Positions 34,396-34,695 of a stretch of 64,000 nt of DNA are shown here, in pieces. The first letter of the stretch is position 1, and each line of letters begins with the position of its first letter. Origin of the DNA: Escherichia coli (GTDB lineage: Bacteria; Pseudomonadota; Gammaproteobacteria; Enterobacterales; Enterobacteriaceae); NCBI RefSeq assembly GCF_013315695.1, contig NZ_CP054353.1; one strand, given 5' to 3'. The notes under the pieces were generated by a model that was not told the origin of the DNA, searched no databases, and saw only the letters and a list, made by a program, of their open reading frames with translations. The position numbers and the translations under genes were made by a program.

Positions 34396-34695
34396 CATAT
34401 CACCAGGAGCCGCGGCTCCTTTGCGTATCCTTTTTTGTCTCCTCACCGTCTGGTCGGTGTCCTGCTGAGACTGCTAACTTCCTGTTTTTATTGGTGTTGT
34501 CCTTACACCGTCCAATCATGATTGGCTGGCGGAGTTTGAATAAATATTGTATTACTTTGATTTTTAATGATTTTGTTTGATTCAGTTTTTGTGCGTATAC
34601 CTAATCGTATACCAATGGCTGTAAGTTAATGTGAAATGAAAGCGCATTTTTACTTGGATTGATGCTATATCGTACAGGAAAAAAATTTTTTTTCG

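Follow-up and report, generated by a model that had tools for sequence, protein, structure and literature searches.

The attachment site of the satellite phage P4 (Pierson and Kahn 1987; NC_001609) has a known layout, with int, an inverted arm repeat, a tandem 12-bp pair, the core, a second tandem pair and crr following each other in this order. The same order is found in the satellite described here. The first tandem pair lies 113 nt before the core in P4 and 112 nt in our satellite, and the second lies 54 and 53 nt after it, respectively. In P4 the 12-bp units are the 'attP arm sequence repeats', with an inverted copy at the start of int, where our satellite has an inverted pair. Both cores match the 3' end of a tRNA-like gene, leuX for P4 and ssrA for the satellite. 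The P4 core has 20 nt, while that of the satellite (TGGTGGAGCTGGCGG) has 15 identical nt, then 3 mismatches and TTGAA. The two elements differ in the arm motif, which is ATGCCCCC in P4 and GTATACC in the satellite, and in the slot that holds gop, beta and cII in P4 and a NACHT gene in the satellite.

Islands with P4-type integrases also occupy ssrA. CP4-57 of E. coli K-12 and CP4So of Shewanella, both 'phage regulatory switches', share with the satellite the ssrA-ypjA locus, the core GCTGGCGG and the layout of the arm pairs. Unlike them, the element in our window is a true P4 satellite. Its arm motif differs from the TGGTCC of CP4-57, and its integrase is about 50% identical to the 'Prophage CP4-57 integrase' of phage phi467. 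Excision of CP4-57 and CP4So moves a 1-nt lesion into ssrA, which experimentally abolishes trans-translation (PMC10107115; PMC5148205), as do the island-derived ssrA mutations that have been tested (PMC10107115). Several such lesions are catalogued in PMC10107115 (Table 1), whose references include Williams 2003: CGCCAGC-CCACCA for CP4-57, CP4So and others, CGCCAGC-----CA for Stm27X, Eco48X and Oi108, and CCCCAGC----CCA for Ype11X.

The satellite and its P2-like neighbour

The window, that is the whole stretch of 64,000 nucleotides analysed here, carries the satellite between the ypjA region and a P2-like prophage (Table 1). DNA identity to phage P4 is 97.4% over 34680-42048, from the start of crr through cos; the homology begins at 34680, just ahead of crr, and ends directly past cos. 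The crr layout is that of P4. The sid, delta and psu genes are present, in the P4 gene order that includes alpha, the crr/ori iterons, cos and the vis/cI region, and ORF88, at whose position the excisionase candidate lies, bears the annotation 'excisionase and transcriptional regulator' in P4. The satellite looks whole, with full-length int, vis, alpha, sid, delta and psu genes and intact cos and crr. The gop/beta/cII/int/attP stretch of P4 is replaced here by a NACHT gene, a different integrase and different att arms. Given a P4 backbone with a replaced int/att stretch, the element is, as judged from its sequence, P4 itself with a swapped defence/int/att module, targeting ssrA instead of leuX. 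The integrase is 37% identical to P4 Int and 50% identical to IntA of phage phi467, the protein labelled 'Prophage CP4-57 integrase' in its record, which was used instead of the K-12 CP4-57 IntA. The feature belongs to a well-described kind and leaves the current understanding unchanged.

The NACHT/STAND NTPase (42075-44033) has a SNaCT5 domain at its C terminus. Cargo in the cos-int slot differs among satellite copies: the copy in E. coli MCJCHV-1 (L019) has a restriction endonuclease, and other matches have AAA ATPase/DUF4435 or DUF2326 proteins.

Table 1. Coordinates of the features of the satellite and its flanks in the window
Feature	Position	Strand	Remarks
ypjA ORF	29689-34362		left of the attR spacer
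Chromosomal ypjA-ssrA spacer, bacterial flank of attR	34363..34522	.	unbroken into ssrA in island-free genomes (L003)
TGG, remnant of the ssrA CCA end, bacterial half of attR	34523..34525	-	5 nt GTGGA (or TGGAG) after it deleted
GCTGGCGG (ssrA sense CCGCCAGC), common core	34525..34532	-	only block common to every junction context
AGTTTGAA, satellite version of the ssrA T-loop region, imperfectly matching; distal (P) arm starts here	34533..34540	-	
Distal arm-type pair, tandem 12-bp CGTATACCTAAT CGTATACCAAT	34594..34616	+	exact 23-mer repeat; 53 nt from core
crr, P4 cis replication region	34680..34979	+	two 120-nt direct repeats, 180 nt apart, with TGTTCACC iterons
alpha primase-helicase	35034..37367	-	99% identical to P4 alpha; PHROG DNA primase family
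Vis/AlpA-type excisionase candidate	39162..39428	-	Pfam Phage_AlpA, 74 bits; at position of P4 ORF88
P4 cos junction	41997..42048	+	ends meet at 42021/42022
NACHT/STAND NTPase, variable slot between cos and int	42075..44033	-	where P4 has gop/beta/cII
Tyrosine integrase, P4 subfamily	44037..45245	-	Arm-DNA-bind_3, Phage_int_M, Phage_integrase (Pfam)
Inverted arm-type pair ATTGGTATACGCGTTTAGGTAAAC (reverse complement GTTTACCTAAACGCGTATACCAAT)	45265..45288	-	between int start codon and direct pair; slightly degenerate
Proximal arm-type direct pair CGTATACCTAAA CGTATACCAAT	45296..45318	+	112 nt from core
Satellite-supplied intrinsic terminator	45360..45394	-	hairpin AGCCCGCA...TGCGGGCT, then T run
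Intact ssrA 3'-terminal 45 nt (TGGTGGAGCTGGCGGGAGTTGAACCCGCGTCCGAAATTCCTACAT)	45430..45474	-	same orientation as attR core; sequence departs from ssrA after it

The 45-nt ssrA fragment at the int-proximal end has two roles: it is the att core for the satellite and, for the P2-like prophage, its displaced piece of ssrA. Homology to the satellite runs as far as 45474, and ARAGORN found no tmRNA gene in the 64 kb window. Hairpins homologous to the terminator adjoin the core in related elements; this satellite-supplied terminator would follow the regenerated ssrA 3' end. Directly to the right of the fragment stands the P2-like prophage (45475-64000), with an integrase (46255-47271), a repressor (47273-47905) and a gpA-like nickase (51250-53664). 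Portal (56956-57987), large terminase (57984-59750) and capsid (60743-61801) ORFs were assigned by position only. As the prophage adjoins the satellite, a P4 satellite and a potential helper stand in tandem at one att locus. This exact junction occurs in no complete E. coli genome of the collection; similar tandems were found in HS4, TOK-001 and Klebsiella (OK490418).

The Klebsiella record, 'phage' Kp4865-2 (L040, OK490418.1), was considered as a source of a free-phage attP and was rejected, being a composite of an integrated island and a P2-like prophage. Although labelled a complete Peduoviridae genome, it contains at 1-11450 an 11.4-kb CP4-57-like island with GCTGGCGG as its exact start, linked to the prophage through the same 45-nt piece of ssrA. 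In E. coli MCJCHV-1 (25760-25800) the int-proximal arm of the satellite ends in ...CCGGATCATGATT before TGGTGGAGC, mimicking the chromosomal flank CCAATCATGAT, where the window has CCGGAAGAGCAAG; this suggests that flank sequence was once exchanged or captured at the core.

The attR junction and the origin of its scar

An earlier note on this DNA had taken tggctggcggagtttgaa (34523-34540) to resemble the reverse complement of the ssrA core and to mark the left boundary of the satellite as an attR. The sequence is present as claimed, and the identity of the boundary was upheld, as homology to the island-free chromosome and to other satellite contexts breaks there. Many E. coli genomes have no island at ssrA, and the ypjA spacer then runs unbroken into the gene. 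One of them (L003) is identical to the window up to 34525 and divergent beyond: it reads ...CCAATCATGAT/TGGTGGAGCTGGCGGGAGTTGAACCC (ssrA), whereas the window reads ...CCAATCATGAT/TGG-----CTGGCGGAGTTTGAATAAAT. Satellite copies with other left neighbours begin to match the window at 34521-34533, in some genomes at 34521-34524. The left contexts of 31 copies, taken from IMG/VR, metagenomes and genomes, are of at least six kinds, all followed by CTGGCGGAGTTTGAATAAAT. Left neighbours of the satellite include an IS30-like element with another island, CP4-57-type island arms and a flank unlike that of E. coli, perhaps an ssrA terminator from a different species. Rightward of GCTGGCGG all 31 copies continue as satellite, while the sequence to its left varies with the neighbour. 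The junction in the window is composed of CATGAT-TGG/GCTGGCGG/AGTTTGAA. GCTGGCGG is exact at both ends, where 34525-34540 and 45437-45452 agree at 13 of 16 positions without gaps and in the same orientation, and int (44037-45245) adjoins the right-hand copy. We regard 34523-34616, with high confidence, as attR, the int-distal junction of a P4 satellite with an ssrA-specific int/att module.

Strand exchange probably takes place inside GCTGGCGG (34525-34532), because this is the only block common to all junction contexts. Its position comes from the comparison of junctions, since the 13 IMG/VR and 17 metagenome loci that contain the exact 20-mer CTGGCGGAGTTTGAATAAAT include no circular attP or restored attB, all 30 being integrated. 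Two other crossover positions were considered. A crossover in the T-loop predicts an attR with TGGTGGAGCTGGCGGGAGTTGAATAAAT; a synthetic query found no such junction, and the best matches had the TGGTGGAGCTGGCGG-AGTTTGAA form. A crossover at the CCA end within TGGTGG, possible at other islands, is unnecessary for this satellite because intact TGGTGGAG/CTGGCGG/AGTTTGAA junctions exist.

Some neighbouring sites were also recorded. In E. coli EPSSH018 (L001, 3940-4010) the arm of another island is joined to the satellite in tandem as ...GACTTCATT-GAGCTGGCGG; this implies a deletion of about 23 nt relative to a phi467-type arm, beside the same core, and an ISApl1 copy is inserted close by. In phi467 itself (L021, about 1270-1330) the att region reads AAAAAG-TGGAGCTGGCGGGAGTTGAACCCG and matches ssrA through the T-loop, but without the CCA at the terminus; an ssrA regenerated from it would have ...GCTCCAC and then a T run as its end. 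In the window, the ypjA region is preceded by a tRNA-Met (CAT) gene (26596-26671, + strand), which has no relation to attR.

The earlier note had called the attR core decayed. This holds for the chromosomal half, where the sole lesion of the window attR is a loss of 5 nt (GTGGA or TGGAG) within CTCCACCA; it does not hold for three mismatches on the right, which belong to the attP sequence of the satellite. In 5,426 complete E. coli genomes, counted with short queries in which every 28-nt seed had to span the junction, attR was intact in 48 copies; a loss of 1 nt was counted in 42, of 4 nt in 58 and of 5 nt, the class of the window, in 45. With 48 intact among 193 copies, about three quarters are scarred. 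An 8-nt deletion was additionally seen in metagenome contigs. When all possible placements were enumerated, every deletion class could share the endpoint TGGTGGA^GCTGG (ssrA sense CAGC^TCCACCA), and the 1-nt and 4-nt deletions could be placed only there. The attR deletion of CP4-57 and CP4So starts at the same base (CAGC^T), with 1 nt lost there and 5 nt in the window. Letter for letter, the window lesion is the catalogued CGCCAGC-----CA variant, already known for ssrA islands, and the 4-nt and 1-nt classes are listed as well in that catalogue of attachment-site 'damage' (PMC10107115, Table 1). The counts per variant in the 5,426 genomes are what our analysis adds to this known oddity. According to 'Traffic at the tmRNA gene' (Williams, 2003), the P4-subfamily ssrA integrase reportedly seems to favour damage of attachment sites. 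The 5-nt lesion would most likely have arisen by integrase-associated damage at or beside the cleavage site and would then have been carried in the chromosome.

The scar may instead be older than the satellite, and we give this account slightly less than an even chance. An earlier ssrA island would have left the 5-nt scar in the chromosome, and later elements that regenerate the ssrA 3' end would merely have displaced the scarred half to their own attR. A scar that predates the satellite says nothing about this satellite's integrase. Such a history agrees with the position of the scar, wholly on the chromosomal side of the common core, and with near-identical satellites (98%) that carry different scars, 4 nt in strain ST2747 and 5 nt in the window. 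It also agrees with the identical CATGATTGG/CTGGCG junction of the 5-nt scar, which is found beside unrelated elements in O157 and ATCC 11775 and is joined to native-type ssrA sequence in 149 genomes. Among the latter is E. coli WB61 (L041, NZ_CP020025.1, 2501-2533), whose island-free ssrA has the 5-nt deletion at its 3' end and is annotated with 359 instead of 363 nt. WB61 seems to be a natural strain whose tmRNA gene kept the scar when an element was lost, and this scar cannot be tied to the particular satellite described here. A scar beside unrelated elements seems, however, to fit repeated damage as well as it fits an old inherited chromosomal scar. Moreover, the 1-nt deletion stands beside three different island arms and beside the flank unlike that of E. 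coli (possibly from another species), and the 4-nt deletion recurs beside a CP4-57-type arm. As these deletion classes recur beside left halves that are not chromosomal, new events must happen repeatedly. The single-base variants of the flank, too, sort imperfectly with the scar type, which speaks against an inherited scar.

The three mismatches to the right of GCTGGCGG have a different origin. In an ungapped alignment the satellite reads AGT TTGAA and ssrA reads GAG TTGAA; two single-base indels at the junction (GGCGG-AGTT-T-GAA), once considered, were dropped, as the ungapped alignment with a 3-nt mismatch block needs none. The mismatches are identical in 31 of 31 satellite copies with at least six left-hand contexts, a sameness that is partly by construction, because the copies were collected with an exact core-plus-20-nt string that contains the mismatch bases. 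The ST131-like strain MCJCHV-1 has an independent copy, retrieved with another query, in which AGTTTGAATAAAT again adjoins an intact core: the junction CATGAT-TGGTGGAGCTGGCGG-AGTTTGAATAAAT repeats 15 nt of the ssrA end perfectly before the satellite sequence sets in. In CP4-57-type elements the T-loop segment has a form of its own (AGTCTGAATTGG). Because the mismatches are the same across copies and contexts and have lineage-specific equivalents in CP4-57-type elements, they read as the element's own attP sequence and not as erosion. A randomly eroded end of a dead, immobilised element, once a perfect ssrA repeat, would explain the 5-nt gap and the three mismatches by which the site differs from the ssrA 3' end, and also the lack of an excised form among the IMG/VR and metagenome loci. 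This explanation is largely refuted and very improbable, since the mismatches recur in all 31 copies and have their counterparts in CP4-57-type elements, the element is otherwise intact and 97% identical to P4, and the deletions gather at one fixed endpoint with no scatter.

The resemblance of the core is not significant on its own, as GCTGGCGGGAGTTGAA, with up to 3 mismatches allowed, matches 34525-34540 and two unrelated places (0.51 matches expected per window). It counts as real because its position coincides with both homology breakpoints, that with the island-free chromosome and that with the other satellite copies. Of the two resemblances between the ends of the element, the 23-mer described below is significant by itself (0 expected), the core is not. 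That the resemblances arose by chance and the true end lies elsewhere has practically no probability left, for all that the 16-mer match is weak, because the empty site and several occupied contexts give breakpoints that converge on 34523-34533 and a 23-mer repeat is not expected by chance.

Arm-type repeats and predicted excision

Two exact copies of the 23-mer CGTATACCTAANCGTATACCAAT, and no more, lie in the 64 kb window (34594-34616 and 45296-45318), against an expectation of none from 100 shuffles even when 3 mismatches are tolerated. The earlier note had seen a repeat near 34593-34615 that recurs by int with an inverted partner; this is confirmed with coordinates slightly corrected to those just given and, for the partner, to 45265-45288. 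Its reading of the repeats as arm-type sites was likewise sound, as they stand where the P4 record places its attP arm repeats. GTATACC heptamers number nine in the window, five of which fall in the two short arm regions. Among 27 distinct sequences the distal pair hardly changes, in contrast to the variable bases around it. The satellite Int has an N-terminal Arm-DNA-bind_3 domain (PF13356; residues 8-92, 80 bits against a cut-off of 27). Furthermore, the arm motif co-varies with the Int lineage, four lineages having four motifs, on both arms where both are available: GTATACC in this satellite, GGTGCC on both arms of the Klebsiella island in record OK490418, TGGTCC/GGACCC in CP4-57 and phi467, and ATGCCCCC in P4. 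Comparison with the CP4-57 att sites, which the earlier note had pointed to, gave the same core and arm layout, with an own arm motif and an own version of the T-loop segment in each. Together these data support the GTATACC pairs as predicted arm-type binding sites of the integrase.

Consensus scans found no sigma-70 promoter in the int arm region, and a strict IHF consensus found nothing in the arms. In P4, Int is reported to repress its own promoter (PMC7286903), which fits repeats located between int and the core. The label 'int promoter' for the repeat region is putative, by analogy with this autorepression.

In the mechanism that we propose, the N-terminal domain of Int would hold the GTATACC pairs on both arms while the catalytic domains pair the two cores. 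Strand exchange within GCTGGCGG would recombine 45437-45444 with 34525-34532, and excision, for which the Vis/AlpA homologue would assist, would free the satellite as a circle whose attP is intact. The rebuilt attP would read ...GAGCAAG-TGGTGGA-GCTGGCGG-AGTTTGAATAAAT... (model prediction ...CCGGAAGAGCAAGTGGTGGAGCTGGCGGAGTTTGAATAAAT...), and the chromosome would keep CATGAT-TGG-CTGGCGG-GAGTTGAACCC (model prediction ...CCAATCATGATTGGCTGGCGGGAGTTGAACCCGCG...), its half being joined to whatever stands to the right. The copy in the window may excise poorly, because the 5-nt deletion removes part of a presumed core-type binding half-site.

Possible consequences for the tmRNA gene

The window attR shares with phage regulatory switches, in which excision inactivates tmRNA, a lesion in the acceptor-stem/CCA segment that excision would transfer to ssrA. 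It differs from them in that the satellite in the window does not abut a functional ssrA, whereas the copies in L001, L002 and L019 do. The P2-like prophage separates the satellite from functional ssrA, so excision alone would not hit tmRNA here; the first recipient of the scar would be the 45-nt piece of ssrA by the prophage and not, directly, a functional tmRNA gene. Where the satellite adjoins ssrA (L001, L002, L019), excision from a scarred attR would leave a defective tmRNA gene.

The exact ends are now fixed for a P4 satellite whose int/att module, directed at leuX in P4, has been replaced by one specific for ssrA. For this integrase lineage, the arm-site motif and the probable crossover block may serve in the precise mapping of islands and the prediction of excision products. 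The scar counts bear on whether these integrases damage their sites routinely and on whether tmRNA function is tied to island occupancy. A further reading, which we offer tentatively and consider rather unlikely, is that the deletions with a fixed endpoint (1, 4, 5 and 8 nt at CAGC^T) mark the cleavage position of the integrase and are either a systematic by-product of P4-subfamily ssrA integrases or a feature that these have evolved, the host tmRNA being functional only while an ssrA-restoring element occupies the site. If this were true, the scars would give such elements an addiction-like hold on the host and would drive element turnover at the ssrA locus.
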